A program made the translations under genes and the position numbers. This document shows positions 2,522-35,303 of a DNA stretch of 64,000 nucleotides, piece after piece. Location: NCBI GenBank assembly GCA_035509435.1, contig DATJLR010000002.1, forward strand, positions 330,338-394,337. The letters run 5' to 3'. Each line of letters opens with the position of its first letter. Positions within the stretch are counted from its first letter, which is position 1. Source of the stretch: Minisyncoccota bacterium (GTDB lineage Bacteria; Patescibacteriota; Minisyncoccia; UBA6257; 2-01-FULL-56-20). Below the pieces are notes generated by a model. That model was not told where the DNA came from and did no database searches. It saw only the letters and a program-made list of their open reading frames with translations.

Positions 2522-2560
2522 TGGCGGACCACCGGGAAATCGAACCCCGAACTGCCGTCT
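2522..2560 (-). other. tRNA-like 3' fragment (T-arm CGGGG-TTCGATT-TCCCG plus acceptor 3' strand plus encoded CCA) with no matching 5' half
   Basis: Minus-strand reading ...cagttcggggttcgatttcccggtggtccgCCA; upstream 50 nt cannot be folded into acceptor, D or anticodon arms. Confidence 0.3.
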
Positions 2561-2654
2561 GTCGAGAGGGCCGTGATACCGTTTCACCAGTGGCCCCCAC
2601 TGACCAGCGAAATGTAGCACGCAGGCGATTAAAATCCTGTTAAACCTTTTCTGC

Positions 2655-20472: not shown

Positions 20473-21924
20473 ATGGCAAACGAAGTAATTCTCAGGTTCA
20501 GCGACGTCACATTCGTGTACGGCAAGAAGCCCATTCTCAATGAGGCCGCTTTTTCGGTGCGCCGCGGGGCGAAGATCACGCTCATGGGGCAGAATGGCGC
20601 GGGCAAAAGCACGATATTCCGACTGATTGCGGGCGAATTGCATCCGGAAGAGGGCGATGTGATCGTCGAGAATGGTATGACAATGGCAATGGCGCGACAG
20701 GTCATCCCCCGCGATCAGTTGGATTCCACTGTTTTAGACTTCTTTAACACTGCGTTCCCGGGCAAGAAAGTGTATGATATCGAGCCGCGCGTCAAAAAAG
20801 CGCTGGATATCGTAAATCTCACCGCCCCGCTCGACCGCACGGTCGGCAGCTTTTCCGGCGGCCAGCAGGCGCGCCTGCTCCTTGCACACGCGCTCATCCA
20901 GGATCCCGATATGCTCCTGCTCGATGAGCCGACGAACAATCTCGATAAGGCCGGCATTGAACATCTCACGAACTTTATAAAAGAATCAAAGAAGACGTGC
21001 ATTGTGATCTCCCACGACGCGGACTTTTTGAACGCGTTCACTGAAGGTGTTCTTTACCTTGATAGCTTTACTAAAAAAGTGGAACAGTATGTGGGCAACT
21101 ACTTTGATGTAGTGAAGGAGATCACCGCGCGACTGGAGCGAGAGCGCATGAAGAAGGTCCGGCTTGAGAAAGAGATCCAGCACCGCAAGGACCAGGCGAA
21201 CTTCTTTGCGCAAAAAGGCGGCCACATGCGCGACGTTGCCAAAAAGATGTGGAACAAGATCGACGAGCTCGAGGAGGATATTCCTGAGTCGCGCCAGGAA
21301 GACCGCACGATCCGCCAGTTCGCCATTCCCTGCCAGGCGGATGTGAGCGGCCAGATACTTCAACTTACTTCAGTGAATGTCATCAAGAATCACAAACCGA
21401 CTGCCAAAAAAGTGAATGTCGTGCTTAAAAAGAACGAGCGCCTTCATCTTGCCGGACCGAATGGCATCGGAAAGACGACGCTCCTTGAAGCCCTTGCCAC
21501 CGGCCATGCCAAGGGCGAGATCGTAGAGCCGGGCGTCCGCATCGGCTATTATCGCCAGGATTTTTCCACGCTCGATTTTGACGCCACCGTCTGGGACACG
21601 CTTTCGCGTGCCATGCGCGAAGGCGACCATGAAAAGCTGCGCTCTCACGCGGCAGGATTTTTGATAGACGCGGAACTGCTTCGCGCAAAGATCGGCTCGC
21701 TTTCCGAAGGCCAAAAAGGTCTCGTCGCCTTCGCGAAGCTGTCCCTTGAGGCGCCGGGTCTTCTCATCCTCGACGAGCCGACGAATCACATCAATTTTCG
21801 CCACATTCCGATCATCGCAAAAGCGCTCGACCGCTACGAAGGCGCGATGATCCTTGTGAGCCACGTGCCGGACTTTGTGAAGCAGATCCGCATAGACCAG
21901 ACGCTGGATCTGGCGGCACTTTAA
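20473..21924 (+). CDS. ABC-F family ATPase (two tandem ABC domains, no TMD)
   Basis: Two Walker A (GQNGAGKST, GPNGIGKTT), two signature/Walker B sets, inter-domain linker. Confidence 0.85.
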   Translation: MANEVILRFSDVTFVYGKKPILNEAAFSVRRGAKITLMGQNGAGKSTIFRLIAGELHPEEGDVIVENGMTMAMARQVIPRDQLDSTVLDFFNTAFPGKKVYDIEPRVKKALDIVNLTAPLDRTVGSFSGGQQARLLLAHALIQDPDMLLLDEPTNNLDKAGIEHLTNFIKESKKTCIVISHDADFLNAFTEGVLYLDSFTKKVEQYVGNYFDVVKEITARLERERMKKVRLEKEIQHRKDQANFFAQKGGHMRDVAKKMWNKIDELEEDIPESRQEDRTIRQFAIPCQADVSGQILQLTSVNVIKNHKPTAKKVNVVLKKNERLHLAGPNGIGKTTLLEALATGHAKGEIVEPGVRIGYYRQDFSTLDFDATVWDTLSRAMREGDHEKLRSHAAGFLIDAELLRAKIGSLSEGQKGLVAFAKLSLEAPGLLILDEPTNHINFRHIPIIAKALDRYEGAMILVSHVPDFVKQIRIDQTLDLAAL

Positions 21925-22304
21925 TCTTTTTTCTCGAGATCCAGACAAACCGAATTGATGCAGTAACGCTTGCCGCCTTTGTCTTCAGGACCATCATCGA
22001 AGACGTGGCCAAGGTGGGCGCCGCAGGTCTTGCAGATAACTTCTGTGCGGTTCATGCCAAAGCTGCGATCGGTCTTCAGTTCAACCTTCTCCAGGTTGAC
22101 CGGTTCGGTGAAACTTGGCCAGCCGGATTTTGAATCAAATTTGGTGTCGGATGAAAAGAGTTCCGTGCCGCACACGGCGCATTTGTACATTCCCTTCGCG
22201 TGCTCGTTCCAATATTTCCCTTTGAACGCGCCTTCGGTGCCGCCTTCGCGGGCGACATGGTACAGCTCCGGATTTTCTTTTTTAAGTTCTTCGTCAGTTT
22301 TCAT
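21921..22304 (-). CDS. msrB: Peptide methionine sulfoxide reductase MsrB
   Basis: Two CxxC zinc motifs (CAVCGTELF, CKTCGAHLGHVFDDGP) and the RYCINS catalytic region. Confidence 0.85.
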   Translation of the reverse strand: MKTDEELKKENPELYHVAREGGTEGAFKGKYWNEHAKGMYKCAVCGTELFSSDTKFDSKSGWPSFTEPVNLEKVELKTDRSFGMNRTEVICKTCGAHLGHVFDDGPEDKGGKRYCINSVCLDLEKKD

Positions 22305-22852
22305 TTGGATTTTTCTTTTAATAGGTTTACAAACTGCTTTTGCAGTTTTTCGACCTTCGGTTCGATGATCACCTGGCAATAACCGGCGTTCGGATGGTTT
22401 TTGAAATAGTGCCGGTGATAATCCTCGGCGTCGTAGAATTCGCCGAGCGGAACCACTTCGGTGACGATCGGACGTCCTTTTGGATCGGATGCGGTAAGCT
22501 CCGCGATGAATTTCTCCGCCTCTGCCTCTTGTGCCGGCGTAGAATAGAAGATGGCCGAGCGATACTGCGTGCCCACATCATTTCCCTGCCGGTTGAGCGT
22601 TGTCGGGTCATGGGTGGCAAAGAATACCGTGAGCAGATCGCGATACGTGACCTGTAACGGATCGAACTCGATGCGCGTGGCTTCCGCGTGGCCGGTCTCG
22701 CCGGTGCAGACGGCGTCATATGATGGATTCGGCACCGTGCCGCCCGTATAGCCGGGCATCACGGAGATCACCCCGCGCAATTCCTCGAACACCGCTTCGG
22801 TGCACCAGAAACACCCTCCGCCGAATACCGCCACTTCAGTTTTTGTTCCCAT
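22301..22852 (-). CDS. msrA: Peptide methionine sulfoxide reductase MsrA
   Basis: Catalytic GGGCFWC motif at the N-terminus. Confidence 0.9.
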   Translation of the reverse strand: MGTKTEVAVFGGGCFWCTEAVFEELRGVISVMPGYTGGTVPNPSYDAVCTGETGHAEATRIEFDPLQVTYRDLLTVFFATHDPTTLNRQGNDVGTQYRSAIFYSTPAQEAEAEKFIAELTASDPKGRPIVTEVVPLGEFYDAEDYHRHYFKNHPNAGYCQVIIEPKVEKLQKQFVNLLKEKSK

Positions 22853-22862
22853 ATTCGTGTAA

Positions 22863-23480
22863 TTATGCCGTTAATGGATGTTTCTTGAGAAGGTTCGCGT
22901 AGTAGACCAGGTTCCGCGCCATCGTCTTCGCCATATGCGGTGTTGCCCCGTTCTTCAAGCGGCGCTCACGGTCGGTGGACGGCGGCATTCCCACCTCGCC
23001 GACCCAGTACGTGCAGCATTGCGGCGGAAGCGTGAAGTTCATGAACGTGAGCACCTCCATGATGCCCGCGAGCACCGCCTGCGCGCCGTCCTCGCTGCCC
23101 GTGATCACGACCCCCGCCACTTTATTGAGCAGCTCGGCGCGGCCGCCGGCAATGACCTCTTCATCGAACGCGTCCAGCCGCTCGATCACCCGCTGCATCA
23201 AACTGGAGCGTCCGCCCCACCATATTGGCGTCGCAAATATGACGATGTCCGCGATGCGGATCTTGTTTACGATCTCCGGCCATTCGTCGCCTTCACCCTC
23301 GCTGAATCCGAGCCCGACTGGAATGTTCCTGTCGGCAAGACGAACGATCTCCGAAGTGATCGTCGCCTGCTTCAGGTCATCCATCTCCTTGAGCACAAGC
23401 CGGACGACCTCTTCGGTATTCGATATGCCGCCATCCTGATGCTTGAGCGATGCATTCAAAACCAATACGTTCAATTTCAT
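22863..23480 (-). CDS. NAD(P)H-dependent FMN reductase / flavodoxin-like fold protein
   Basis: MKLNVLVLNASLK start and TPIWWGG motif typical of the NADPH-dependent FMN reductase family. Confidence 0.75.
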   Translation of the reverse strand: MKLNVLVLNASLKHQDGGISNTEEVVRLVLKEMDDLKQATITSEIVRLADRNIPVGLGFSEGEGDEWPEIVNKIRIADIVIFATPIWWGGRSSLMQRVIERLDAFDEEVIAGGRAELLNKVAGVVITGSEDGAQAVLAGIMEVLTFMNFTLPPQCCTYWVGEVGMPPSTDRERRLKNGATPHMAKTMARNLVYYANLLKKHPLTA

Positions 23481-23512
23481 TTTTCAATTATATTATTCCT
23501 TATGGCGGCGCG

Positions 23513-24760
23513 CTATCCAAAGGTAAACGTGTACGCCTGAAGCCCCGGTGTCTCAACGATAAGCTGCAGTGTATGCACTCCGCCGCCATTCGGGTCGCTC
23601 ACCAAATTGTAGAGGCGATTACCCGAGATGGTCACCTTTCCGTTGTGGACATCGCTGCCGGCGTCCGCGGCGCTGATCGGCGCCCCATCCTGCATTACGT
23701 CCACCACGGTGCCGTTCGGGGCTCCGGCGGCGACTATATATACATTGCCGGCATTGTACTCATAAGTGATCGTCGCGCCCGCGCTGATGTTTTGCGCATA
23801 TTGGTCCTCAAAGTCCCACGTGCCGCCGAGATAAAGCTGATTCAGCTGGATGGCGCTCGGCACCGGCGCCGTGAGCGTCTGGCTGCCGTTCACGAAGAAC
23901 GTGCCATTGGCAAGCAAACTGTTCCTTGCCGCGCCGAAGTATGTTTCCGGACTTTGGATCTCGTTCAGGTTGTCGGAGGTAAGGTCGACGGTCGACGTCG
24001 GGATATCCGTTGTGTTCTGTCCCAGAAGTTGCGCGCGCTGAACCAATAATTTCTGAATATCCGATTCGGTCGTCGCGTAATCCCCTTCGCCCACATGGTC
24101 GTGCACGATATAGCCGGCGATGTCGATGAGATATTCATGCGGCCAGTACAGGTTGTTATATGCATTCCATGTTCCATAGTTGCTGTCGAGAACGACCGGA
24201 TAATGGATGCCGTATTCGGCCACGGCGCTTTGCACATTGCTCAATTCCTTTTCAAAGTCGAATTCCGGAGTATGGATGCCGACGATCGTGAGCCCGTATG
24301 GCTCATATTTTTGATACCAGGCGTTGAGATACGGGATCGTTCGCACGCAGTTGATGCAGCTATAGGTCCAAAAATCGAGCAGGATCACGCGCTGTCCGAC
24401 GAGGCTTTTTAAGGTGAACGTGGATGACACATTGATAAAGCCGGTAGGATCGGTTATTTCGACCGCCGCCTGGTCGCCGGCGGCCTTATCCGATGCCGCG
24501 ATCTGTTGCAATGACGCCTTCTCTCCGCTCGTAAGGTCGGTGACCGGCGCCGGTGCGGGATTGCCCGTGCTGCTTCCCGCGGCCATCGAGCTGGTGCTTT
24601 CCATGCTTGTCGTGGCGTTCGCAAGGAGTGTATTCACGTCGATCGCCTGTCCCGCGCCGCCGGATGCCGCCGGATGGACCTTCATGTCCTCCAGATACCA
24701 GATGCTTCCGACCACTACGAGAATGATCGCGATGAACGCAATTTTTTTTGTGGTGCTCAT
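23513..24760 (-). CDS. Membrane-anchored thioredoxin-fold thiol-disulfide oxidoreductase (TlpA/ResA/DipZ-C-like) with extra C-terminal beta-rich domain
   Basis: N-terminal TM, linker, thioredoxin core with redox motif WTYSCINC. Confidence 0.8.
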   Translation of the reverse strand: MSTTKKIAFIAIILVVVGSIWYLEDMKVHPAASGGAGQAIDVNTLLANATTSMESTSSMAAGSSTGNPAPAPVTDLTSGEKASLQQIAASDKAAGDQAAVEITDPTGFINVSSTFTLKSLVGQRVILLDFWTYSCINCVRTIPYLNAWYQKYEPYGLTIVGIHTPEFDFEKELSNVQSAVAEYGIHYPVVLDSNYGTWNAYNNLYWPHEYLIDIAGYIVHDHVGEGDYATTESDIQKLLVQRAQLLGQNTTDIPTSTVDLTSDNLNEIQSPETYFGAARNSLLANGTFFVNGSQTLTAPVPSAIQLNQLYLGGTWDFEDQYAQNISAGATITYEYNAGNVYIVAAGAPNGTVVDVMQDGAPISAADAGSDVHNGKVTISGNRLYNLVSDPNGGGVHTLQLIVETPGLQAYTFTFG

Positions 24761-24775
24761 GATGAATGGTTATTT

Positions 24776-25498
24776 TTATACTTTTAACTTCAATAACAGA
24801 TCGTTCACAAACCCGAAGTTCGCGATAAGGGGCAGGTCCTGCGTGAAGACCAGGACGCCAAGCACGACCAGGATGGCGCCGAAAAACGGGTTCACATATT
24901 CCAGTTTCGCTGCATATTTGTTTATAAGCGCGGCACTTTGTGCGACGAACAGCCCAACGATAAGGAACGGGATGCCGAGGCCGATCGCGTATGAGAGCAG
25001 GAGCCAGAACGCCTCGCCTGGCGCGGATGCCGCAATGCCAAGAATGCCGCCGAGCACCGGCCCCACGCATGGCGTCCACCCGGCGGCGAACGCAAGCCCG
25101 AACAGGAGCGAGGTGAGGTAGCGGGACCTGAGCTTTGCGCCAAAGTTCAATTTATGGTCGCTCTCAAAGAAGCGGATCCGGAAAAATCCCATCAGATAAA
25201 GTCCGAAGAAGATCACGATCGTGCCGCCGATCCACGCAAGCCACGACTGCACTGCATAGGCAATGTGCGAAAGCACCCCGTTCAGCAGCACGCCCAGCAG
25301 GGCGAACACGATCGAGAACCCCAGCACAAAGAAAAAACTGTTCAGAAAAATGCTCCACCGCGAAGGCTTCGCCGCGGCATTCGATGACGATTCTCCTGCC
25401 AGATATGCCAAAAAGCCCGGGATGATCGGCAGAATGCATGGCGAAAGGAACGATACAATGCCGGCAAGGAACGCGACGAGAATAGGAATATCAGTCAT
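24776..25498 (-). CDS. ccdA: Cytochrome c-type biogenesis protein CcdA / DsbD-beta-like thiol-disulfide transporter
   Basis: Six TM helices with the two conserved cysteines (FLSPCILP, GWTPCVGP). Confidence 0.85.
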   Translation of the reverse strand: MTDIPILVAFLAGIVSFLSPCILPIIPGFLAYLAGESSSNAAAKPSRWSIFLNSFFFVLGFSIVFALLGVLLNGVLSHIAYAVQSWLAWIGGTIVIFFGLYLMGFFRIRFFESDHKLNFGAKLRSRYLTSLLFGLAFAAGWTPCVGPVLGGILGIAASAPGEAFWLLLSYAIGLGIPFLIVGLFVAQSAALINKYAAKLEYVNPFFGAILVVLGVLVFTQDLPLIANFGFVNDLLLKLKV

Positions 25499-25506
25499 GG
25501 GCAAAA

Positions 25507-25863
25507 TTATAACCTGCTTTTTCCGTAAATAAGGCCGCCGATCTTTGCGATCACCATAAGCGCAAGCGCGTAGATAAGCCATGGATCAAGTGCGTGCTGG
25601 AGCTCGCCGGTCACTATGCCTACCAGGAGCAGCGCCGAGCCGGCAAAGTATGCGATGCGATCGGCAAACAGGCGGTGGAATTGCTCGCGTTCGTCGCCGC
25701 GGCTCTCGCGCCAGAGGAATGTGGCAAAGAATATATAAAGTGCGACCGCGCCGATCAAAAGCCCCATCACCGCGTAGCCGGGCATGAATACGTTCCATGG
25801 ATTGAATATCACGAAAAGCAACACAAGCAGTCCCAACCCTACCAGCAGTTCTTTTTTTGCCAT
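25507..25863 (-). CDS. Small membrane protein (DUF2178-like partner of an XRE regulator)
   Basis: 119 aa, 4 TM; overlaps the stop of the upstream XRE gene, a recurrent XRE + membrane-protein pair. Confidence 0.55.
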   Translation of the reverse strand: MAKKELLVGLGLLVLLFVIFNPWNVFMPGYAVMGLLIGAVALYIFFATFLWRESRGDEREQFHRLFADRIAYFAGSALLLVGIVTGELQHALDPWLIYALALMVIAKIGGLIYGKSRL

Positions 25864-25873
25864 AGTAATGTAG

Positions 25874-26077
25874 TTATGAGAGATAAAATAATTCTTCGAC
25901 CGGCCGCTTAAAAAATTTTGCCAGGCGGAGCGCGAGCAAAACGGACGGGACATAGTTCCCTTTCTCGATCGCAATGATCGTCTGGCGGCTCACGCCGATC
26001 TTCTCCGAAAGCTTCTCCTGCGTGATGTCCGCAGCCGTCCGGATCTCGTAGATCGTATTTTTCACCGCTTCTTTCAT
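25874..26077 (-). CDS. XRE-family helix-turn-helix transcriptional regulator
   Basis: 67-aa Cro/C1-type HTH (ITQEKLSEKIGVSRQTIIAIEKG). Confidence 0.8.
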   Translation of the reverse strand: MKEAVKNTIYEIRTAADITQEKLSEKIGVSRQTIIAIEKGNYVPSVLLALRLAKFFKRPVEELFYLS

Positions 26078-26128
26078 GATCTCAGTATACGGCGCGCTCC
26101 ATGAATGTCAAGTACTCTTTACATTGCC

Positions 26129-27745
26129 CTACTGGGCAAGCGGGATCGTCGCCCTGAACGTGCTTCCCTTTCCCTCTCCCGGTGATTCCGCCACGAGCGT
26201 TCCGCCATGCGCCTCCACGATCTTGCGGGCTATATATAAGCCAAGGCCGGTGCCGCGAACCTCTTTTTTGATCCGCTCGTCACGGATGAACTCTTCGAAA
26301 AGGAACGGGATGAGCGCGGCCGGAATGCCATAGCCGGAATCGCTGACCACGATGCTCGCCTTGCCTTGTTCTGCCTTCAACTCCACTTTTACAAACCCGG
26401 CCGGCGTGTATTTGATCGCGTTGTCGATCAGGTTCTGGACCACCTGCTTGAACTTCTCCTTGTCGATGCTTACCGTTACGGGTGACGGCGGGAGCGCGGC
26501 GGTGAGGGAAAGCTTTTTCGTCTCGGCAAGCGGCATGATCGAATCCACGGTTCCGGCGACGATCGGCACCAGGTCCGCTTTTTCGAACGAATATTCCATC
26601 TTCCCCTCCTCCACCTTGCGCACGTCGAGAAGCGTGTTGATGAGCCCGATCAGCTCATCCGCCGATTGCTGGACCTTCCCGAGCGCTTCCTTGGCCTTAT
26701 CGCTCACCTCGCCATACGAACCGCCGATCACGAGCGTAATGAACCCCTTCATCGCCGCGAGCGGCGAACGGATCTGGTGCGACGCGAGCGACAACAATTC
26801 GCTCTTGAAGCGGCCGAGTTCCGCAAGTTGGGCGTTGCTGGCCTCGATCTTCTTATTGAGATGCTCAAGCTCTTCGCGCTGCTCTACTTCCCGCTGGACG
26901 CTTTGGATGAGGAGGATCCCGAATACCAGAACAAGAACGAACACCACGGTCTGGAATATGATCACCGCGGTTCCTTTGGACACCGTCACTTCCGCAAACG
27001 TGACGATCGCGAGAACAAAGGTCATGGCCTCTGCGGCAAAGACCTTTACCCGAAGCAAATGATGCCGGATGATCGCATATGCGGTAAGTCCCGCGAGCGG
27101 AAAGATGAATACCGCGCCCAGCTCCAGGAAGCGGGTTATATTGAAGAACGCGGGAAGGATATAGTTGAACACGATATGGCAAAGGAATGTGATCGTCGCG
27201 CCGGCAAGCACCAGCGCATAGGCCGCGCGTTCGGTTTTTTCAGCCCTCAATAATTTCTTTAAAAGAAGAACGAATGCGCTTATCACAAGCGATACGATGA
27301 GCATTCCGAATATTGCGATACCGAAGCCGGGCTGGGCGACCGGTGCCTGTCCGGCAGCTCCTATCGTCTGAATGCCTTTGAACGTGAATGGCGTGAGGGT
27401 GAAGAGGTCTACGAGGATGACGGCGGGAACCAATATCCTGGCATACCAACGCGGCCAATCCATTGTCTTTCCCGGAAACACATAAAAGAACTGGAAAAGA
27501 GCGAAGGTATACCATACGGCAAAAAACAGGACGAACCGGAACAGCCAAAGGATGACGGCGGGCGAAGAGAACTGATAGCTTAAATAATTCACGATGCTCC
27601 ACAGGGACGCGGCGACGGACAAAAACAGAAAGCTTTTATTGGTGACACTCGTACGGTCATTGAAAAATGCCACAAAGCCCAGGATGGTGATCGCCGCAAC
27701 CGTGACCGCGACGGATAAGAGATCGATGTTGTTAAGGGTGGTCAC
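26129..27745 (-). CDS. Sensor histidine kinase with ~8-TM N-terminal sensor region
   Basis: H-box LASHQIRSPLAAM; N, G1 (DSGYGI) and G2 (GTGLGL) boxes of HATPase_c. Confidence 0.85.
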   Translation of the reverse strand: MTTLNNIDLLSVAVTVAAITILGFVAFFNDRTSVTNKSFLFLSVAASLWSIVNYLSYQFSSPAVILWLFRFVLFFAVWYTFALFQFFYVFPGKTMDWPRWYARILVPAVILVDLFTLTPFTFKGIQTIGAAGQAPVAQPGFGIAIFGMLIVSLVISAFVLLLKKLLRAEKTERAAYALVLAGATITFLCHIVFNYILPAFFNITRFLELGAVFIFPLAGLTAYAIIRHHLLRVKVFAAEAMTFVLAIVTFAEVTVSKGTAVIIFQTVVFVLVLVFGILLIQSVQREVEQREELEHLNKKIEASNAQLAELGRFKSELLSLASHQIRSPLAAMKGFITLVIGGSYGEVSDKAKEALGKVQQSADELIGLINTLLDVRKVEEGKMEYSFEKADLVPIVAGTVDSIMPLAETKKLSLTAALPPSPVTVSIDKEKFKQVVQNLIDNAIKYTPAGFVKVELKAEQGKASIVVSDSGYGIPAALIPFLFEEFIRDERIKKEVRGTGLGLYIARKIVEAHGGTLVAESPGEGKGSTFRATIPLAQ

Positions 27746-27754
27746 GGAGAGGAG

Positions 27755-28828
27755 TTATGAATGATATTCGAAGATCGGATCAAGTCGCAGCGACCGATGC
27801 GGGAGCGCGCCGCCTTTTCCTATGCGAAACATGACAATGATCGTCTCGCCATCCGTCCCGAACTCCTTTGAGAGCGTTCCGTACGCCTGTTCGATGCCGT
27901 GAACCTGATTTACGGAAAAATCCGCCGCTTCGTTGCCCGCGATCCGCTGATGAAAGAAGGAGATCGCGGTCAGCAACTGGATGTCGTATCCCCGGGCTGT
28001 GGCTGCCAGCCATGTCCGTTCCATGAGCCGGCCGCCTTCGATGAAATCACGCGGGGAATTTCCCTTTGTGACGACCGCCCCCAGCGCGGAGGAATGTTCA
28101 TAGAGGGCGGCATTCTCTTTTGCGGCCATGGCCGACAGGCCTATTGTGGCAAAAAATCTGCGCATGGATTCCTTCTTGAGGAGTTTGAAGGTGAATTCTT
28201 GAGGTGGTTTCAATGCCAGCTCTTTGACATAAAAGCCGCTTTTCGTGTTCAATGCGTCGTTCAATGTCCAATAGATATGCTTGAAGAGAAAATCATGTAC
28301 CGCCCGATTTTCAAACAGGAGCCGATCGCCGTAGCTTAGGGCGCCCGCGATCATCCGTTTTTTTTCCGCATCACTGACAAAGATCAGCCGCGCCGGGATG
28401 GCGGTTTCGGCCGCCGATCCGGCGATACCGCTTTTTTCCTCTTCCTCTAGAATGTGCCCCGCTGCGTACGCGGTCCGGTTGCTTGCGCGAAGAGATATGC
28501 TTTCATACAAGCCATCCTTTTTGATGCTCGCATCTTGCGCAAATTTGAGCGCTGCCGTGCAGTCCGTTTCCGCAGGGAGCGGAAATAGCGTTACATCGAC
28601 CCGATAGCCGAGCACAGAAGCGGCGATAATGACATTTTCGATCGCCGCGCCGTGGGACACGAAAGATCCGAATTGATTGAAATTGTACGGTGACCGATCC
28701 CGGTCGGGAAGGTTGTATATAAAGAGCGTTTCATTCTTAAAAACAAACCGCCACGGTTGGCAGTTCTCTCCGGAAGGAGCCCGAACAGCCGCACCGACCA
28801 TCAGATCAAGATCTTCCTTTCTCATCAT
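27755..28828 (-). CDS. Tandem nitroreductase-fold flavoprotein (SagB/McbC-type dehydrogenase-like)
   Basis: N-terminal nitroreductase signature RAPSGENCQPWRFVF; length and second degenerate half match the two-lobed SagB/ThcOx architecture. Confidence 0.75.
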   Translation of the reverse strand: MMRKEDLDLMVGAAVRAPSGENCQPWRFVFKNETLFIYNLPDRDRSPYNFNQFGSFVSHGAAIENVIIAASVLGYRVDVTLFPLPAETDCTAALKFAQDASIKKDGLYESISLRASNRTAYAAGHILEEEEKSGIAGSAAETAIPARLIFVSDAEKKRMIAGALSYGDRLLFENRAVHDFLFKHIYWTLNDALNTKSGFYVKELALKPPQEFTFKLLKKESMRRFFATIGLSAMAAKENAALYEHSSALGAVVTKGNSPRDFIEGGRLMERTWLAATARGYDIQLLTAISFFHQRIAGNEAADFSVNQVHGIEQAYGTLSKEFGTDGETIIVMFRIGKGGALPHRSLRLDPIFEYHS

Positions 28829-28829
28829 T

Positions 28830-30041
28830 TTACAGGCCGAACATTTTTTTGAACGAATCGGCGATATTCTTTCGTTCCTGGACGGCCGCCGGCGAGTGAT
28901 AGTCCGGAATCAGCTGTTCGTCGAGTGAAACGAGCGCCCGGTCGCTTTCCAGGGGCTGGCCGTTGACGATCTTCCTGACACAATACGCCACGGCAGCGCC
29001 GTTGATCCATGCCGCGCCACCGAGCTGTGGCCAGGAGACGATCGTCTTCCCCATCTCAAGAAGGGACGCCTGCATGCGTGCCGTAATGTTCTCGGGGCCG
29101 ATATGTTTGGTGATCGTCTTCCCGATGCCAAACTTATCAAGCGACCGCAGCCCTTCATATGTCACATCCCCGAGCCGCCCGTGGAAGAACGCGAGATTCG
29201 GGTCCATGTCATATCGTTCCACATCGACCACCGCGTTATCGCCGTTATCCGCGGCCATGACGACCGGCAGCGAATATTTCCTGGCTTTTTCGCGGATGAG
29301 GTATTTGACGGCGATGGTATCAAGTTCATCGATGATCACATCCAACTTCTTCGATCCCGCCACGAACTGCTCAAGGTTTTCCGGCGTCAAGCCGTCGGGA
29401 AAAAGCTCGACGGTCGCGTAGGGATTGATCTCATATATCTGCCGCGCGGTCACCTCGACCTTGCGCACTCCCAGGTCCTGCACGCCCGCGCGAACCCGAT
29501 TGATGTTGGAAAGCGCCAGCCGGTCGAAGTCCGCAAGTTTGATATGCCTCCCTCCTCCCTGCAGAACGATCGCTAGGGCGACACTGTTGCCGACGCTCAA
29601 TCCACCGATCCCGATGACGGCATCATAGAATTTTTTTTGCTCATCGTCATTGATGAGGTTCCGGTTGCGGGCGGTGCGCACCTTTTGAAAATCCGCATCC
29701 TCAAGAATGTGCACGAGCGATGAAAGCCACGGATAAAAGACCCATCTGCCCTGCTGCCACAGCGGCGCCACTGCACGTGATCCGTCGATATGTTTTGCCA
29801 GCGCATCGGCGAACCCCGGCTGATATACCTGCGACGGGTTATTGACGGCAAAGAGCTCGCGGATCTGCTCTTCGTAGTCGTCCCCTACCGTGCTGATCCG
29901 GCCGTTTTGAAAAAGCGCCCCGACCGTTTCACGATCTGCCTGCTGTCCAAGGTCAAAAATAGCCGGCTCTGACGGTACCTCGCCCCCTTTCAATTTTTCC
30001 TCCAATGGAGATCCCATGCAATTTATTTTTTTACGACCCAC
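28830..30041 (-). CDS. E1-like ThiF/MoeB-family adenylyltransferase with ~130-aa N-terminal extension (MccB/PaaA/TOMM-C-like architecture); no CxxC zinc motifs
   Basis: Gly-rich nucleotide loop VIGIGGLSVGNSVALAIVLQGG and ATP-binding motif KLADFDRLALSNINR (cf. DxDxVExSNLNRQ). Confidence 0.8.
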   Translation of the reverse strand: MGRKKINCMGSPLEEKLKGGEVPSEPAIFDLGQQADRETVGALFQNGRISTVGDDYEEQIRELFAVNNPSQVYQPGFADALAKHIDGSRAVAPLWQQGRWVFYPWLSSLVHILEDADFQKVRTARNRNLINDDEQKKFYDAVIGIGGLSVGNSVALAIVLQGGGRHIKLADFDRLALSNINRVRAGVQDLGVRKVEVTARQIYEINPYATVELFPDGLTPENLEQFVAGSKKLDVIIDELDTIAVKYLIREKARKYSLPVVMAADNGDNAVVDVERYDMDPNLAFFHGRLGDVTYEGLRSLDKFGIGKTITKHIGPENITARMQASLLEMGKTIVSWPQLGGAAWINGAAVAYCVRKIVNGQPLESDRALVSLDEQLIPDYHSPAAVQERKNIADSFKKMFGL

Positions 30042-31516
30042 TTTTGCTTTATTCCCGGCTTGAAATAGACCGGATGCTCATATTCCCAAAAGACGATGCG
30101 CGGAGTGACCTTTCGCGGCATGGAATTATAATTGTTGTGGTATTCGGCATTGTGCTCCATAAGCGAACGCACAATGCTGCTTGATACCTGCCGTTTTAGC
30201 GTTGCGGTCTGCCTGACCCGCGGCCGCGTTTCGACGTTCACTTCAAGGTATTCGTCGTGGGAATCATCGAATTTCGTGGCCATGGTGAACCGCCCCGTGA
30301 CCGACCGCTGCAGTGAACGATGCTCCAATCCTTCTTTGATATGTTCGGGATAAATGATCGCGCCGTACAACTTGGTCGAAAAATCGCTCCTTTCAAAGAT
30401 ATAGACGAACGGAAGGTCGGAAAAGTCGGCTTTTATGGCACGCTCCTCTTTTTTTATGTCGATCGCATGGAGCGCAAGCGTCCTTCTTACCTGGTCGGCC
30501 GAAAAAACGCCGCCGTGGTCGCCGATCGCATATCGTATGAGCGGAATGGTGTTATCGCCGGTCAGGGCTATTTCTCCGTTGACTGCTTCGAAATTGATGA
30601 AGAGCGGGTTATATTGAGCAAGGGTCGGTGTCATTTCGATCTCCGAAAAAAGATCACTGAACAAGCGCGTGTCCGCGCTGGCGCGCTGGCGCGTAAAGAT
30701 GCTGAAAGGGCTTTCAAAGGCCATTGCCCCAAGGTCGGCGCTTCCATAGATGTTGAGTGTGTCGCGGCACAGGTCTTTTATTCCCGCCAATTCAGCCACA
30801 TGCCTCCGGAATGTCTCTGTAAACGCTTCCGCCGCAAAAAATAGCCTGAGATTCATTTTTTTTATATTGATACCGCGCGCAGCCGCCTCTTCGAGGACAT
30901 CCTTCACGAACGGAGGATATCCGATGAGAATGGTCTGTTTGAAGTGCGGCGCGAGCGATGTAAACGCGTTGAAGATCTCCTGCTTGTTGATGCCCGGCGT
31001 AAGTATTGAAATATGCTGTCCGAGCCGCTTGCCCGCGATCTCGAACGCCTTGTAAGTGATCAGTCCGCCGATCCAGACGCCCATGCCAAAACCGACGATC
31101 ACAAGAGTCGGACCGTCCCCGTAACTGCTATTTTGTAAGAACGTTTCCGCGATAACGGAATACTGCGCGTCGAGCGTTTCGGTACGGGGGAAATAAAACG
31201 GTTCCCCGGTGGAACCGGATGTGGATGTCCATACTGTCGCGCCGCTTTTGAACGTCCCGTTCCACAACAATCTTTCGAGCGGGTACTGGCGCAGGTAGTT
31301 CTTTTTATTGGTCAGCGGCACCTTTTGGAGGTTCGCGAAGGTCTTTATCGCCCCCGGCACGATACGGTTTTTTTTAAGGAAATCCTTGTATGCGGGTATC
31401 CCGCGCGCGGCGCGATGAAACAGCGCCAGCGTGCGGCGCTCCTGCTCTTTTTTCCAAAAAGCGGACCGTTTTATTTTAAGTATGTTCAATATCCGTCCGG
31501 CCTCTTTGTCATCCAT
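30023..31516 (-). CDS. Phenylacetate-CoA ligase / coenzyme F390 synthetase-like adenylate-forming enzyme (PaaK/CapK family)
   Basis: AMP-binding P-loop-like WTSTSGSTGEPFYFP and overall PaaK-like length (497 aa); overlaps the ThiF-like gene by 19 nt. Confidence 0.75.
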   Translation of the reverse strand: MDDKEAGRILNILKIKRSAFWKKEQERRTLALFHRAARGIPAYKDFLKKNRIVPGAIKTFANLQKVPLTNKKNYLRQYPLERLLWNGTFKSGATVWTSTSGSTGEPFYFPRTETLDAQYSVIAETFLQNSSYGDGPTLVIVGFGMGVWIGGLITYKAFEIAGKRLGQHISILTPGINKQEIFNAFTSLAPHFKQTILIGYPPFVKDVLEEAAARGINIKKMNLRLFFAAEAFTETFRRHVAELAGIKDLCRDTLNIYGSADLGAMAFESPFSIFTRQRASADTRLFSDLFSEIEMTPTLAQYNPLFINFEAVNGEIALTGDNTIPLIRYAIGDHGGVFSADQVRRTLALHAIDIKKEERAIKADFSDLPFVYIFERSDFSTKLYGAIIYPEHIKEGLEHRSLQRSVTGRFTMATKFDDSHDEYLEVNVETRPRVRQTATLKRQVSSSIVRSLMEHNAEYHNNYNSMPRKVTPRIVFWEYEHPVYFKPGIKQKWVVKK

Positions 31517-31532
31517 AATAGAAGTATATCAT

Positions 31533-32432
31533 TTAGCGTCGTACGGATGTGAGCCAGGAACGATAGCGACGCGCCGCTCCGTGCGTTGCCGACGCATAGG
31601 CTTCCTTGAGAGCGCCCGTGACCGGTCCCGTCCCGCCGGTTCCGATCCGGCGGCGTTCAATCTTCCCTATCGATGCCACCTCTACCGCAGTGCCGGAAAA
31701 GAACGCCTCGTCCGCGGCCATCAATTCTTTGACCGTGATGGGTTTCTGAACCGTCCGGATACCCATATCTTTTGCGATGGTCATAATGCTTTCCCGGGTG
31801 ATCCCCGGAAGGATAGAGGCGGAATCCGGAGTATATAAAATTTTATGTTTTATTAAAAAGATATTTTCCCCGGGACCTTCGGAAACATACCCCTTGGTGT
31901 CCAGGAGGACGCATTCATCGAATCCGCGCCGATGCGCTTCGATCGATGCGAGCACCGATGTGGCATAAAATCCGGATATTTTCGCCCCGGGGACGATGGA
32001 TCGCGGATCGAACCGCGCATAGTTTGAGATCCCGATGGAAAGCGGCGAATCTCCTCCAAGATATGCCCCCCAGGGCCATGCCGCGATGGCAACATGCAAC
32101 ACCGCATTTTTTACGGTAAGCCCCATTGATCCTTCTCCAAAAAATGCGATGGGGCGGATGTAGCACTCGCGCAGTTTATTTTTCAGAACCGCCTCCCGGA
32201 TCGCGTCTTTGATCTCTTTTTTCGTATACGGAAGCGCTACCCCGAATGCGCTAATGGACCGAAAGAACCGGTCGACATGTTCCGGCAGCCGGAAAACAGC
32301 GGATCCATTCGCGGTTTGATATGCGCGGATCCCTTCGAACACGCCGGTGCCGTAATGAAGCGCATGGCTTAAAATATTAGCAGTGGCCTTGCGCGAAGGC
32401 ACGAACTTTCCATCAAGCCAGATGACGCTCAT
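31533..32432 (-). CDS. ilvE: Branched-chain amino acid aminotransferase (PLP fold type IV)
   Basis: Near-collinear match to E. coli IlvE blocks (HALHYGTGVFEGIRAY, AYIRPIAFFGEGSMGL, AAWPWGAYLG, SEGPGENIFLIK, LPGITRESI). Confidence 0.85.
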   Translation of the reverse strand: MSVIWLDGKFVPSRKATANILSHALHYGTGVFEGIRAYQTANGSAVFRLPEHVDRFFRSISAFGVALPYTKKEIKDAIREAVLKNKLRECYIRPIAFFGEGSMGLTVKNAVLHVAIAAWPWGAYLGGDSPLSIGISNYARFDPRSIVPGAKISGFYATSVLASIEAHRRGFDECVLLDTKGYVSEGPGENIFLIKHKILYTPDSASILPGITRESIMTIAKDMGIRTVQKPITVKELMAADEAFFSGTAVEVASIGKIERRRIGTGGTGPVTGALKEAYASATHGAARRYRSWLTSVRR

Positions 32433-32441
32433 TGCGGTGAT

Positions 32442-32834
32442 CTATAATAACGCCTTCACTTTTTTATCCAATTTTTCCACATCATCCATCTTGCTGAATA
32501 CCGGGATCCCTTTCAGCTCTTCTTTCAGGTGTGCCCGGTCAGATCGCGCAATCTCCATCATGGGATCACGCAGGCTGCTAAAAAATGCGAACTTCACGTT
32601 CTGTAATTTTGGGTTCCGCTTCACGGCAAGCGCGAGCTCCCAACCGCTCGGTCCGGGTGGCATGAAAATATCGCTCAAAATAAGGTCCGGCTGCAGCTCC
32701 TCTGCCTTTGCAAGTGCTTCCGGAACGGTGTGCGCGATGACCGTCTCGCACCCTTCCGTCCGAAGCTTTACCGACGCGATCTCAAGAAATTCGTCCTCGT
32801 CATCGATAAGAAGGATTAATGGATGATCTCTCAT
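32442..32834 (-). CDS. Single-domain response regulator (REC only, CheY-like)
   Basis: ILLIDDEDEF acidic pocket, phospho-acceptor D in LILSDIFMP, conserved downstream S/T and K; no output domain. Confidence 0.85.
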   Translation of the reverse strand: MRDHPLILLIDDEDEFLEIASVKLRTEGCETVIAHTVPEALAKAEELQPDLILSDIFMPPGPSGWELALAVKRNPKLQNVKFAFFSSLRDPMMEIARSDRAHLKEELKGIPVFSKMDDVEKLDKKVKALL

Positions 32835-34829: not shown

Positions 34830-35303
34830 ATGGAGCCGCTCGCGATAGACAAGCTGGCGCCGGATTTCACCCTTCCTGACCAGGACGGCCGGGAGCAGAC
34901 GCTGTCAAATTATCGGGGGCAATGGGTGCTTCTCTATTTTTATCCCAAGGACGACACGGCGGGATGCACAAAAGAAGCGTGTTCCATCCGCGACTCGTTC
35001 CCGAAATTCCAGAGCTTGAACATAAAAGTGTTCGGCGTGAGCATCGATCCGCCGGAAAGCCACCGGGCATTCATCAAAAAATATAAACTGCCGTTCGCTC
35101 TCCTTTCTGACGAGCACAAAAAAGTGGTAACGCGCTATGGTGTGTGGGGTGAAAAAAAATTCATGGGGCGCGAACACGAGGGCGTCAATCGGACATCATT
35201 TCTGATCGATCCGACGGGCACAATCGAAAGGATCTACGTCGACGTGCGGCCGGAAAAACACGCGGAAGAGGTGCTGCGGGATCTCAAACGTTTGGAGGGG
35301 TAA
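34830..35303 (+). CDS. bcp: Peroxiredoxin Bcp (thiol peroxidase)
   Basis: Catalytic PKDDTAGCTKEAC motif. Confidence 0.85.
   Translation: MEPLAIDKLAPDFTLPDQDGREQTLSNYRGQWVLLYFYPKDDTAGCTKEACSIRDSFPKFQSLNIKVFGVSIDPPESHRAFIKKYKLPFALLSDEHKKVVTRYGVWGEKKFMGREHEGVNRTSFLIDPTGTIERIYVDVRPEKHAEEVLRDLKRLEG

Follow-up and report, generated by a model that had tools for sequence, protein, structure and literature searches.

A conserved patescibacterial gene cassette combining putative TrzS/Rv1355c-like cyclase and flavin oxidase halves with a PaaK-fold ligase and a sensor kinase: a possible oxazolone-type pathway

Introduction

The closest described relatives of the locus analyzed here are the oxazolone synthetases of Actinomycetota or Proteobacteria, in which a ThiF-like, ATP-dependent cyclase is combined with a nitroreductase-superfamily flavin-dependent oxidase (FDO). 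OxzB of Pseudoalteromonas rubra (2021; bioRxiv 10.1101/2020.06.11.147165) and, in Mycobacterium tuberculosis and its relatives, TyzB/TyzC (2023; PMC10404671) and TrzS/Rv1355c (2025; PMC12856293) cyclize and desaturate N-acyl amino acids to yield oxazolones, which in M. tuberculosis are lipids. Oxazolones do not last long in water, their half-life at pH 8 being a matter of hours (bioRxiv 10.1101/2020.06.11.147165), and the authors of the TrzS study likened them to acyl-homoserine lactones (PMC12856293).

Results

The window, a stretch of 64,000 nucleotides from a Minisyncoccota bacterium, had been described in an earlier note as containing six closely packed minus-strand genes that form a candidate biosynthetic or modification module. 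All six coordinates were borne out, and the domain identities of the six proteins held in Pfam and NCBIfam profile searches. The features are as follows.

32442..32834, minus strand: REC-only response regulator, 130 aa, Pfam Response_reg only; first gene of the packed block
31533..32432, minus strand: IlvE (branched-chain amino-acid aminotransferase), NCBIfam NF005146; accessory gene
30023..31516, minus strand: divergent PaaK-fold adenylate-forming ligase; proposed N-acylating enzyme
28830..30041, minus strand: ThiF-like adenylating cyclase, counterpart of the Rv1355c/TrzS N-terminal half; alternative start at 30017
27755..28828, minus strand: nitroreductase-superfamily FDO, NCBIfam PRK14851, NF005901 and Acg family
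26129..27745, minus strand: HisKA_7TM sensor histidine kinase, Pfam HisKA_7TM, HisKA and HATPase_c; last gene of the cassette
26084..26111, minus strand: promoter-like site, 11/12 match to the sigma-70 consensus, directly upstream of an HTH_3 ORF (25874-26077)

The tight packing was likewise confirmed, with intergenic gaps of 1 to 16 nt, and the 19-nt overlap reported between the ligase and ThiF genes exists only if ThiF translation is taken to begin at the GTG at 30041; in public gene calls the ORF (395 aa) opens with the ATG at 30017 and lies 5 nt from the ligase gene. The unit probably ends, on its downstream side, at the promoter-like site, which is a consensus match only, from a scan that overall showed no enrichment over shuffles. 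All ORFs of at least 20 aa within 26129-32834 overlap one of the six genes, so that there is no room for a precursor-peptide or ThiS/MoaD gene, and hence no alternative peptide or carrier-protein substrate is encoded in the operon. No YcaO was found in the operon or flanking genes, nor was any small-ORF cluster conserved across 80 genomic loci.

Among NCBIfam models, the ThiF-like protein matched the Rv1355c family (NF005901) with 347 bits, compared with 75 bits for the next family, and ThiF, MoeB and TcdA were detectable homologs (40-64 bits against cut-offs of 266-376). The FDO (357 aa), which carries APSGENCQPWRF, scored 195 bits against PRK14851 (profile positions 326-670) and 172 bits against NF005901 (positions 375-712), whereas the Acg family, at 135 bits, fell below both of these ThiF-fused FDO models. 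Because the two proteins match the two halves of NF005901 (347 and 172 bits, neither half alone reaching the cut-off of 476 bits) and align, in the same order, along an annotated fusion protein of Rhodococcus, their homology identifies them as an Rv1355c-family protein (TrzS) divided between two genes, an arrangement like that of TyzB/TyzC. The FDO is only 25% identical to its counterpart in that actinobacterial fusion (residues 381-649), which weighs against an oxazolone product.

The Pfam ThiF domain begins at residue 125, and the N-terminal extension before it, which the earlier note had compared to a peptide clamp, appears from sequence comparison to be, rather than such a clamp, a trait of the TrzS/Rv1355c family, whose members act on small molecules. 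Its predicted topology is beta-alpha-beta-alpha-alpha-beta-beta-alpha, in contrast to the beta3-alpha3 of RRE domains. The DxDxxxxSNxNR motif is present as claimed (D171-R182) and CxxC is indeed absent, but in place of the canonical GxGxxG the nucleotide loop reads G-I-G-G-L-S-V-G, a variant of the family. The best PDB neighbor of the protein was AclA (9EGB), a structure solved 'in complex with substrate', and PaaA was a weak sequence match. As for the flavoprotein, the SagB/McbC azoline dehydrogenase identity gave way to an FDO-type (Acg/TyzC/Rv1355c-like) oxidase. Its conserved features include the APSxxNxQPW motif and the residues R114 and R118, and the only solved structure matched by sequence was that of Acg (PDB 2YMV). 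With the FMN-binding Acg-family proteins (Rv2032, Rv3131, Rv3127), the FDO shares this motif and a single-chain tandem nitroreductase fold, but those proteins lack a ThiF or ligase partner. A further point against an oxazolone is the use of O2 by known FDOs, given that anoxic groundwater is home to many CPR bacteria.

The ligase gave no Pfam match and matched NCBIfam PaaK weakly (E 3e-13). By fold, its nearest neighbors belong to the PaaK family, the non-CoA ligases NatL2 and ClxA among them, and it is ~60 residues longer than PaaK. The ThiF homolog adjoins the ligase in 79/80 genomic loci, and both ligase-ThiF (P0261) and ThiF-ligase (P0362) fusions were found, so the ligase is a near-universal partner of the ThiF gene. 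The OxzA/TyzA/TrzA-type N-acyltransferase that defines known clusters is absent, which also counts against the oxazolone reading; neither a GNAT/FeeM-type enzyme nor a conserved GNAT-like cluster was found in the neighborhoods of genomic loci, and the ligase takes the place of conserved third enzyme. Another possibility that speaks against that reading is that it is a standard CoA ligase working with a transferase from some other locus. NatL2 and ClxA, from benzoxazole pathways, form ester or amide bonds straight from the adenylate, without CoA (PMC7204872; PMC12519233). The likeness lies in acyl-adenylate chemistry that feeds the heterocycle-forming step of a small-molecule pathway, but the ligase here is only 17-21% identical to these enzymes, their substrates are aminohydroxybenzoates, and its CoA independence is proposed by analogy only.

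The gene set occurs in 160 independent loci, its order conserved, or permuted with the genes still together, and this recurrence indicates that the grouping exceeds chance. The cassette is conserved in hundreds of CPR species, the relatives examined all being Patescibacteria. The view of the six genes as one functional unit, with the kinase and REC-only regulator belonging with the enzymes, stood, and a biosynthetic or modification module is a supported reading. Some variant loci carry an Acg-type FDO (180-189 bits against NF047509) and an alpha/beta-hydrolase, with the FDO no longer adjacent to the kinase, suggesting that the end product may differ from the oxazolone itself. In the genome, the cassette lies amid genes for MsrA, MsrB, an FMN reductase, a thioredoxin-like protein, DsbD/CcdA and a Bcp peroxiredoxin, a neighborhood kept only in close relatives.

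IlvE is securely assigned (366 bits against the NF005146 equivalog cut-off of 279) and yet accessory: it occurs in ~5/80 genomic loci and 1/44 evaluable metagenomic loci, its presence in this slot being confined to close relatives (L018, L032, L037, L069, L083), and so is not the conserved member that the earlier grouping implied. Most other loci have an ELFV-type Leu/Phe/Trp dehydrogenase in this position. This enzyme, absent from the window, immediately precedes the ligase in at least 40/80 loci (median gap of 22 nt, n = 56 loci) and is fused to it in P0253, a sequence identical in four deposited MAGs, on 9 contigs. These data indicated that an amino-acid/2-oxo-acid enzyme belongs to the pathway, and a supply of amino or keto acid by IlvE is plausible.

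The kinase comes after the enzymes in 35/42 evaluable genomic loci, is the last gene in 87/87 four-gene loci, and a kinase of the same type also ends the distant variant loci (L165-L168). Conservation of its sensor region (40% identity) comes close to that of the kinase core (46%). A reciprocal search with the sensor domain alone placed an FDO upstream of the kinase in 44/44 evaluable loci and the three enzymes together in 37/44; they were together in 30/42 evaluable loci. The REC-only protein retains D11/D12, D55, S85/S86 and K114, and its gene is upstream of the ligase in ~30/80 genomic loci (11/42 evaluable loci), whereas in L168 it comes after the kinase. The FDO-kinase linkage is the tightest of the cassette, and since 6-7 loci have an FDO and a kinase without ligase or ThiF inside 7 kb, a sensory role for the flavoprotein accounts for the pattern no less well than a biosynthetic role would.

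Discussion

As our best explanation, held at roughly even probability, we propose that the ligase makes an N-acyl amino acid, the ThiF-like enzyme converts it into an oxazolone and the FDO desaturates it, in a pathway coupled to the two-component system. IlvE, or mostly the Leu/Phe/Trp-type dehydrogenase elsewhere, would feed the pathway by interconverting a hydrophobic amino acid and a 2-oxo acid; its coupling is evident from gene position and gene fusion, and we infer the direction and substrate. The ligase would then adenylate a carboxylic acid and couple it to the amino group of an amino acid, standing in for the acyl-CoA-dependent acyltransferase of known pathways, as suggested by the missing acyltransferase, the obligate ThiF adjacency or fusion, and the structural neighbors NatL2 and ClxA. 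By homology with TrzS/TyzB, the ThiF-like enzyme would adenylate the N-acyl amino acid at its carboxylate, which the amide oxygen would then attack to close the 5(4H)-oxazolone ring; the FDO, likewise by family homology, would desaturate the C-alpha/C-beta bond. The 7TM kinase and the REC-only regulator, which are genetically linked to these enzymes, may sense the product as a labile, autoinducer-like signal, or may adjust the pathway to a cue that is external or redox in nature.

CqsA/CqsS and LuxM/LuxN are pairs of genes for a signal synthase and a membrane sensor kinase. The cassette resembles them in coupling small-molecule biosynthetic genes to a polytopic membrane histidine kinase, but it shows no homology to their synthases or receptors, its sole regulator has no DNA-binding output domain, and product binding by the kinase would be an analogy only.

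Acg-family proteins are members of the mycobacterial DosR hypoxia regulon, and on that model the FDO might instead serve the kinase chiefly as a partner that responds to redox state, oxygen or flavin. The ligase and ThiF would then make or recycle a ligand or cofactor of the FDO, or else a compound that protects against stress, instead of a signal for secretion. We consider this unlikely. It is consistent with the tight FDO-kinase linkage, the loci lacking ligase or ThiF, the redox neighbors, the Acg-type FDOs of variant loci and the link between the M. tuberculosis tyz locus and resistance against oxidative stress (PMC10404671), but that neighborhood is limited to close relatives, and the FDO leaves the side of the kinase in the alpha/beta-hydrolase variants. 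The presence of all three enzymes in most loci, the fusions that link ligase, ThiF and dehydrogenase into one pathway, and the higher FDO scores with ThiF-fused models also argue against it.

Quite improbable is a different heterocycle: cyclic dipeptide oxidase AlbA dehydrogenates the diketopiperazine ring in albonoursin biosynthesis, and here the ligase could couple two units derived from amino acids into a dipeptide or N-(2-oxoacyl) amino acid, which ThiF would cyclize through the terminal amine into a diketopiperazine-like ring for the oxidase to dehydrogenate. ThiF chemistry needs only a nucleophile attacking an acyl-adenylate, and the dehydrogenase-ligase fusion and adjacency suggest an amino-acid-derived acid as the ligase substrate; nevertheless, the ThiF protein is specifically Rv1355c-like, the characterized members of that family all make oxazolones, and a ThiF review holds no precedent for ThiF-made diketopiperazines. 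Nitroreductase-family enzymes do desaturate diketopiperazines (bioRxiv 10.1101/2020.06.11.147165).

Modification of a peptide or protein C terminus, with the ThiF N-terminal domain binding a ribosomal peptide or protein as in MccB, PaaA and TOMM C-proteins and with a SagB-type flavoprotein, is very improbable, for the PaaA match and the substrate-bound AclA structure are set against the missing small ORFs and YcaO, and against an N-terminal region of TrzS-like homology and non-RRE topology. Least probable of all is sulfur-carrier, thiocarboxylate or cofactor chemistry of the ThiF/MoeB/TcdA or PDTC type, or amino-acid catabolism or salvage with an ordinary acyl-CoA ligase: the homology to ThiF, MoeB and TcdA, the classical role of the PaaK fold as CoA ligase and the possible service of a dehydrogenase or IlvE with an acid-CoA ligase in amino-acid fermentation speak for it, but the scores lie far below cut-offs, the ThiS/MoaD carrier gene, rhodanese-type sulfurtransferase and CxxC are all absent (so that the PDTC analogy drawn earlier fails), and catabolism leaves the obligate ThiF and FDO partners, the fusions and the kinase unexplained.

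The oxazolone-type reading bears on the earlier statement that no described pathway accounts for the combination, and on the remark that a match to a characterized pathway would speak against novelty. For the ThiF and flavoprotein pair that statement is outdated and such a match exists (OxzB, TyzBC, TrzS), which covers half of the case; for the full gene set no description was found in the literature searched. The novelty is thus the company of a known pair: a PaaK-fold ligase, an amino-acid dehydrogenase or IlvE, and a 7TM sensor kinase, all additions to the known synthetases. The cassette may be a small-molecule production-and-sensing system in CPR/Patescibacteria, whose genomes are tiny and in which very few such systems are known.

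Gene block in the window

The window sequence confirmed the six ORFs on the minus strand at 26129-32834, which the earlier note had called from sequence alone and taken as a candidate uncharacterised modification or biosynthetic module.

Genes of the cassette (coordinates in the window, strand, product and basis of assignment)
32834-32442, minus: REC-only response regulator (Pfam and NCBIfam scans; D55 in the receiver)
32432-31533, minus: IlvE (NCBIfam equivalog cut-off exceeded)
31516-30023, minus: PaaK-like ligase (weak PaaK match in the NCBIfam scan; no Pfam match)
30041-28830 (GTG start) or from ATG 30017, minus: ThiF-like protein (Pfam ThiF domain begins at residue 125)
28828-27755, minus: nitroreductase-like flavin-dependent oxidase (FDO), 357 aa (Pfam and NCBIfam scans; motif APSGENCQPWRF)
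27745-26129, minus: sensor kinase (HisKA_7TM + HisKA + HATPase_c)

The intergenic gaps are 9 nt between REC and IlvE, 16 nt between IlvE and the ligase, 1 nt between ThiF and FDO, and 9 nt between FDO and the kinase, while the ligase/ThiF junction is a 19-nt overlap with the GTG at 30041 or a 5-nt gap with the ATG at 30017, the latter being the ThiF start chosen by public gene calls. Within the block, no ORF of at least 20 aa is free of overlap with the six genes, which leaves no place for a hidden gene encoding a peptide or carrier protein. Matches in the promoter and terminator scan were not enriched relative to shuffles and were used merely to suggest boundaries.

Directly after the kinase (window 25507-26077, minus strand) lie the genes for a 67-aa XRE-type HTH_3 protein, preceded by an 11/12 promoter-like site, and for a ~120-155-aa membrane protein; among the compared loci, the two are conserved in L001 and L018 only. 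Elsewhere in the window, ARAGORN placed a tRNA with a 4-base anticodon (cgac), its type undetermined, at 2522-2596 (minus strand), which is probably a false positive because the Rfam gathering-threshold scan gave it no support.

The ThiF-like protein and the FDO as a split Rv1355c-type protein

In NCBIfam scans, residues 25-390 of the ThiF-like protein matched the model NF005901 ('Rv1355c family protein', 722 positions) over positions 12-351 with 347 bits, the second-best family reaching 75 bits, and residues 5-349 of the FDO matched positions 375-712 of the same model with 172 bits. The cut-off of NF005901, a model built on fused proteins, is 476 bits, and each half scores lower, with a simple sum of 519. 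The FDO also gave 195 bits against PRK14851 (profile positions 326-670) and 135 bits against the Acg family of FMN-binding tandem nitroreductase-fold proteins. By BLASTP against a Rhodococcus Rv1355c-family fusion, residues 28-385 of the ThiF-like protein aligned with residues 11-344 (37% identity, E 8e-63), sharing a W-x-x-Y-P-W ... R-x-x-R-N-R-N motif, and residues 18-292 of the FDO aligned with residues 381-649 (25% identity, E 8e-19). The nucleotide-binding residues of the adenylating domain are intact, the N-terminal region before the ThiF domain is collinear with Rv1355c, and the adjoining gene, starting 1 nt past the ThiF stop, encodes an FDO of the nitroreductase superfamily.

Because both proteins are collinear with NF005901 and with the Rhodococcus fusion, the pair is best read as a split Rv1355c-type protein. 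On the same alignments, the ~125-aa 'N-terminal extension' of the ThiF-like protein, in which the earlier note had seen a possible RRE or peptide-clamp domain, is recognised as an inherited family feature. AclA (PDB 9EGB/9EGC), which the ThiF review does not mention, ranked closest to the ThiF core in both sequence and structure.

Several Rv1355c-family enzymes have been characterised as oxazolone synthetases. OxzB is the founding member (bioRxiv 10.1101/2020.06.11.147165), the split pair TyzB + TyzC yields C12-tyrazolone (PMC10404671), and TrzS turns N-acyl-tryptophan into N-acyl tryptazolone, first closing the ring in an ATP-dependent step and then desaturating it in an O2-dependent one, with D217, R540 and Q651 (M. 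smegmatis numbering) being residues that matter (PMC12856293). Oxazolones are destroyed by acid and by methanol (PMC12856293). The discovery of these natural products and of their ThiF-flavoprotein synthetases dates only from 2021-2025, and the earlier view that the ThiF and FDO pair fits no described pathway is outdated because this chemistry is now published. The catalytic core of the cassette recognisably belongs to the oxazolone-synthetase family; its new features are the enzyme at the pathway entry, an accessory dehydrogenase, an obligate sensor kinase and the clade of its hosts.

A divergent PaaK-fold ligase in the acyltransferase position

The ligase has the PaaK-type ANL fold, with the P-loop and the C-terminal catalytic lysine present. 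Its score of 49 bits against TIGR02155 (cut-off 646), together with no Pfam AMP-binding match, falls short of equivalog-level similarity to PaaK. Among 1.84 billion cluster representatives, 493 clusters (50% identity) matched at E ≤ 1e-30, and the ligase stands as a subfamily of its own. CoA ligases as well as non-CoA ligases are among its structural neighbours, with GH3 amido synthetases ranking much lower. NatL2, a PaaK-family enzyme, makes an ester straight from the acyl-adenylate without CoA (PMC7204872), and ClxA has been described as an amide ligase (PMC12519233), so there is precedent for direct N-acylation by a PaaK-fold enzyme. By analogy, we infer that the window ligase may catalyse such an N-acylation. 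Its roughly 60 extra residues might obstruct the conformation that binds CoA, as in NatL2.

In the OxzB, TyzB/TyzC and TrzS systems, the N-acyl amino acid is provided from acyl-CoA by an acyltransferase of FeeM/AHL-synthase-like fold (OxzA/TyzA/TrzA). The operon holds no N-acyl amino acid synthase of the GNAT/FeeM type, nor did the 80 genomic neighbourhoods compared share a conserved cluster of acyltransferases; here, in contrast to those systems, the ligase holds the partner position of the acyltransferase. The network analysis in the TrzS paper emphasises Actinomycetota and acyltransferase neighbours, without ligases or CPR (PMC12856293), and full-text searches returned nothing tying Patescibacteria/CPR to oxazolones, ThiF-nitroreductase systems or the HisKA_7TM kinase type.

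A partnership of the ligase with a ThiF-FDO protein outside CPR was unsupported, as the sole non-CPR ligase homolog in the plasmid collection, from Nonomuraea gerenzanensis (35% identity), is followed downstream by a 734-aa ORF that does not encode a ThiF-FDO fusion. The Rv1355c family shows a further architecture on a plasmid of Streptomyces sp. NBC_01471 (L081, 5917-7715), where the gene for a stand-alone Rv1355c-like ThiF, 40% identical to the window protein over a stretch that takes in the N-terminal region, overlaps a GNAT-family gene at its start and no FDO is annotated nearby.

Distribution and gene neighbourhoods

The ligase and the ThiF protein have more than 1,000 homologs each; for the top 120 of each, identity to the window proteins is 53-83% and the source names are all Patescibacteria lineages or generic. 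When one genome per GTDB species was scanned, 377 genomes had a ligase relative, and 80 loci were fetched from these, with titles including Liptonbacteria, Harrisonbacteria, Wolfebacteria, Adlerbacteria, Magasanikbacteria, Wildermuthbacteria, Brennerbacteria, Roizmanbacteria and Microgenomates. A ThiF homolog stood beside the ligase in 79 of the 80. The other components were counted in the genomic loci with enough flanking DNA, as summarized below.

Components near the ligase in 42 genomic loci with enough flanking DNA
ThiF: 39/42
FDO: 36/42
7TM kinase: 35/42
ThiF, FDO and kinase together: 30/42
Amino-acid dehydrogenase or IlvE: 24/42
REC: 11/42

Across the genomic and metagenomic sets, all four genes were present in 87 loci, 71 of which had the order ligase-ThiF-FDO-kinase; in the remaining 16, the order was permuted, with the genes contiguous and the kinase always last. 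Median intergenic gaps in this comparison were ~35 nt or less.

Relative to the window protein, the ThiF partners in loci L001-L162 fell into two identity classes, ~55-77% (48 loci) and ~33-48% (80 loci), the latter aligning only from about residue 49, whereas ligase identity was ~35-60% throughout. This difference suggests that two ThiF subtypes may pair with one ligase family. A fused TMD-NBD ABC protein of ~590-625 aa (cluster c1), possibly an exporter, adjoins the cassette in ~12 of the 80 loci (7 of the 42 evaluable), including L012, L026, L033, L035, L037 and L039, and is not in the window.

The amino-acid enzyme slot and gene fusions

IlvE scored 366 bits against NF005146 (cut-off 279) and 344 against TIGR01122 (cut-off 246), and matched Pfam Aminotran_4 with an E value of 1e-53, giving an equivalog-level score together with the class IV aminotransferase fold. 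IlvE holds this slot in just a handful of the window's close relatives, and at least 40 of the 80 loci have a ~350-aa protein with ELFV_dehydrog_N and ELFV_dehydrog domains directly upstream of the ligase, its best NCBIfam match being the tryptophan dehydrogenase ScyB (252-259 bits, under the 600 cut-off). Thus, two unrelated enzymes, each interconverting a hydrophobic amino acid with its 2-oxo acid, occupy one slot. IlvE is a stand-in for the amino-acid dehydrogenase and was rejected as a core member of the cassette, the slot being filled by the ELFV dehydrogenase in most relatives.

Three double-length proteins were present among the representatives listed from the 493 ligase clusters. P0253, a dehydrogenase-ligase fusion, has an identical sequence in four deposited Parcubacteria MAGs and on 9 contigs; the ligase-ThiF-like fusion P0261 and the ThiF-like-ligase fusion P0362 each occur on one contig only and are therefore less secure. 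A HisKA_7TM kinase closes all three fusion loci, with an alpha/beta-hydrolase directly upstream of it in each, and an Acg-type FDO lies nearby in two of the three.

This hydrolase (~290 aa; L165 10839-11711, L167 7681-8556 and L168 3767-4648 in the variant loci) takes the position of the FDO in the main cassette type. The L165 protein shows NCBIfam similarity to meta-cleavage-product hydrolases and enol-lactonases, and the enzyme could open or perceive a lactone-like ring.

The sensor kinase and receiver

The kinase contains Pfam PF16927, PF00512 and PF02518 with intact H-box and N/G boxes (H323 in SLASHQIRSPL; DNAIKY, DSGYGI and GTGLGL), and the phospho-acceptor of the receiver is D55. In 45 orthologs, mean identity to the window kinase was 40% for the 7TM sensor region versus 46% for the catalytic core, with W49, N53, Y54, R70, P91, P119 and Y223 near-invariant in the sensor.

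A metagenome scan with the sensor domain alone (6-sequence alignment) yielded 80 loci, 44 of which had at least 4.5 kb upstream. In these, the FDO was found upstream of the kinase in 44/44, the ligase in 38/44, ThiF in 37/44 and all three in 37/44, so that reciprocal searches agreed on a conserved genetic linkage of the candidate synthase genes and receptor kinase. Six or seven loci had the FDO and kinase without ligase or ThiF, and several small multi-pass membrane proteins upstream instead.

Runs of such small (~90-240 aa) multi-pass membrane proteins surround the FDO gene in L088 (2686-5302 and 6604-6942) and L125 (1463-3569). A conserved protein of ~303-318 aa with no Pfam match adjoins FDO/kinase in L046, L057, L062 and L074 (cluster c17) and at L125 4697-5647, sitting between the two genes in L046, L057 and L125.

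Proposed pathway and alternatives

As the best-supported reading, we propose that the amino-acid/2-oxo-acid enzyme would supply the ligase, which would produce an N-acyl amino acid, perhaps independently of CoA; the ThiF-like protein would then cyclise this to an oxazolone, and the FDO would desaturate the C-alpha/C-beta bond. The whole pathway would be coupled to the 7TM kinase and the REC-only regulator, with the kinase serving as a product sensor or as a pathway controller. Homologies, gene linkage and fusions are observed here, and from them we infer the substrates, the independence from CoA, the end product and the part played by the kinase.

The main rival reading is that the FDO and kinase are primarily a redox or flavin sensor. 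Theirs is the tightest linkage in the cassette, loci with only these two components exist, and thiol/oxidative-stress genes flank the cassette in this genome. Downstream (window 21921-25582, minus strand) are MsrB, MsrA, an NADPH-dependent FMN reductase, an AhpC/TSA + Thioredoxin_10 protein and DsbD_TM/CcdA, a set also present in the close relatives L001, L010 and L018; upstream, beyond TypA/BipA, lies a Bcp-type peroxiredoxin (34830-35303, plus strand). The Mtb tyz locus, which makes an oxazolone, has itself been tied to oxidative-stress resistance (PMC10404671).

Weaker candidates are a product of the diketopiperazine type, modification of a peptide, and chemistry of a sulfur-carrier or catabolic kind. 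A TOMM/SagB system was rejected, since the RiPP-type features sought, namely a precursor peptide gene in the operon, an RRE/peptide-clamp domain and a YcaO partner in the operon or its flanking genes, were all missing. Orthology to ThiF/MoeB/TcdA fails at 40-64 bits versus cut-offs of 266-376, and a PDTC-like thiocarboxylate pathway was likewise rejected, as the block has no ThiS/MoaD-type carrier gene and the only cysteines of the ThiF-like protein, C8 and C354, form no CxxC.

The proposed oxazolone pathway could be extended to a self-contained chemical signalling system widespread in CPR, an idea that we consider rather unlikely. The ligase, ThiF-like protein and FDO would make a short-lived azlactone signal from an amino acid without acyl-CoA, the co-inherited 7TM kinase would be its receptor, acting via the REC-only regulator, and the alpha/beta-hydrolase of the variant loci would process or perceive the ring, much like butenolide-hydrolysing receptor hydrolases.

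Wide retention of a related cassette in minimal genomes, at least 377 species-level very small genomes as scanned by ligase relatives, argues that this chemistry matters there and has an important role. CPR organisms are thought to be poor in lipid and CoA metabolism, and a ligase in place of an acyl-CoA transferase, being a different pathway entry, may suit such hosts. Hundreds of CPR annotations, such as 'hypothetical', 'phenylacetate-CoA ligase' and 'molybdopterin/thiamine adenylyltransferase', could be corrected. The near-obligate link to a 7TM kinase offers a starting point on the function of oxazolones and on how CPR bacteria sense their partners or surroundings and, if true, the signalling reading would give these ultra-small bacteria their first candidate chemistry for signalling between cells or between symbiont and host.
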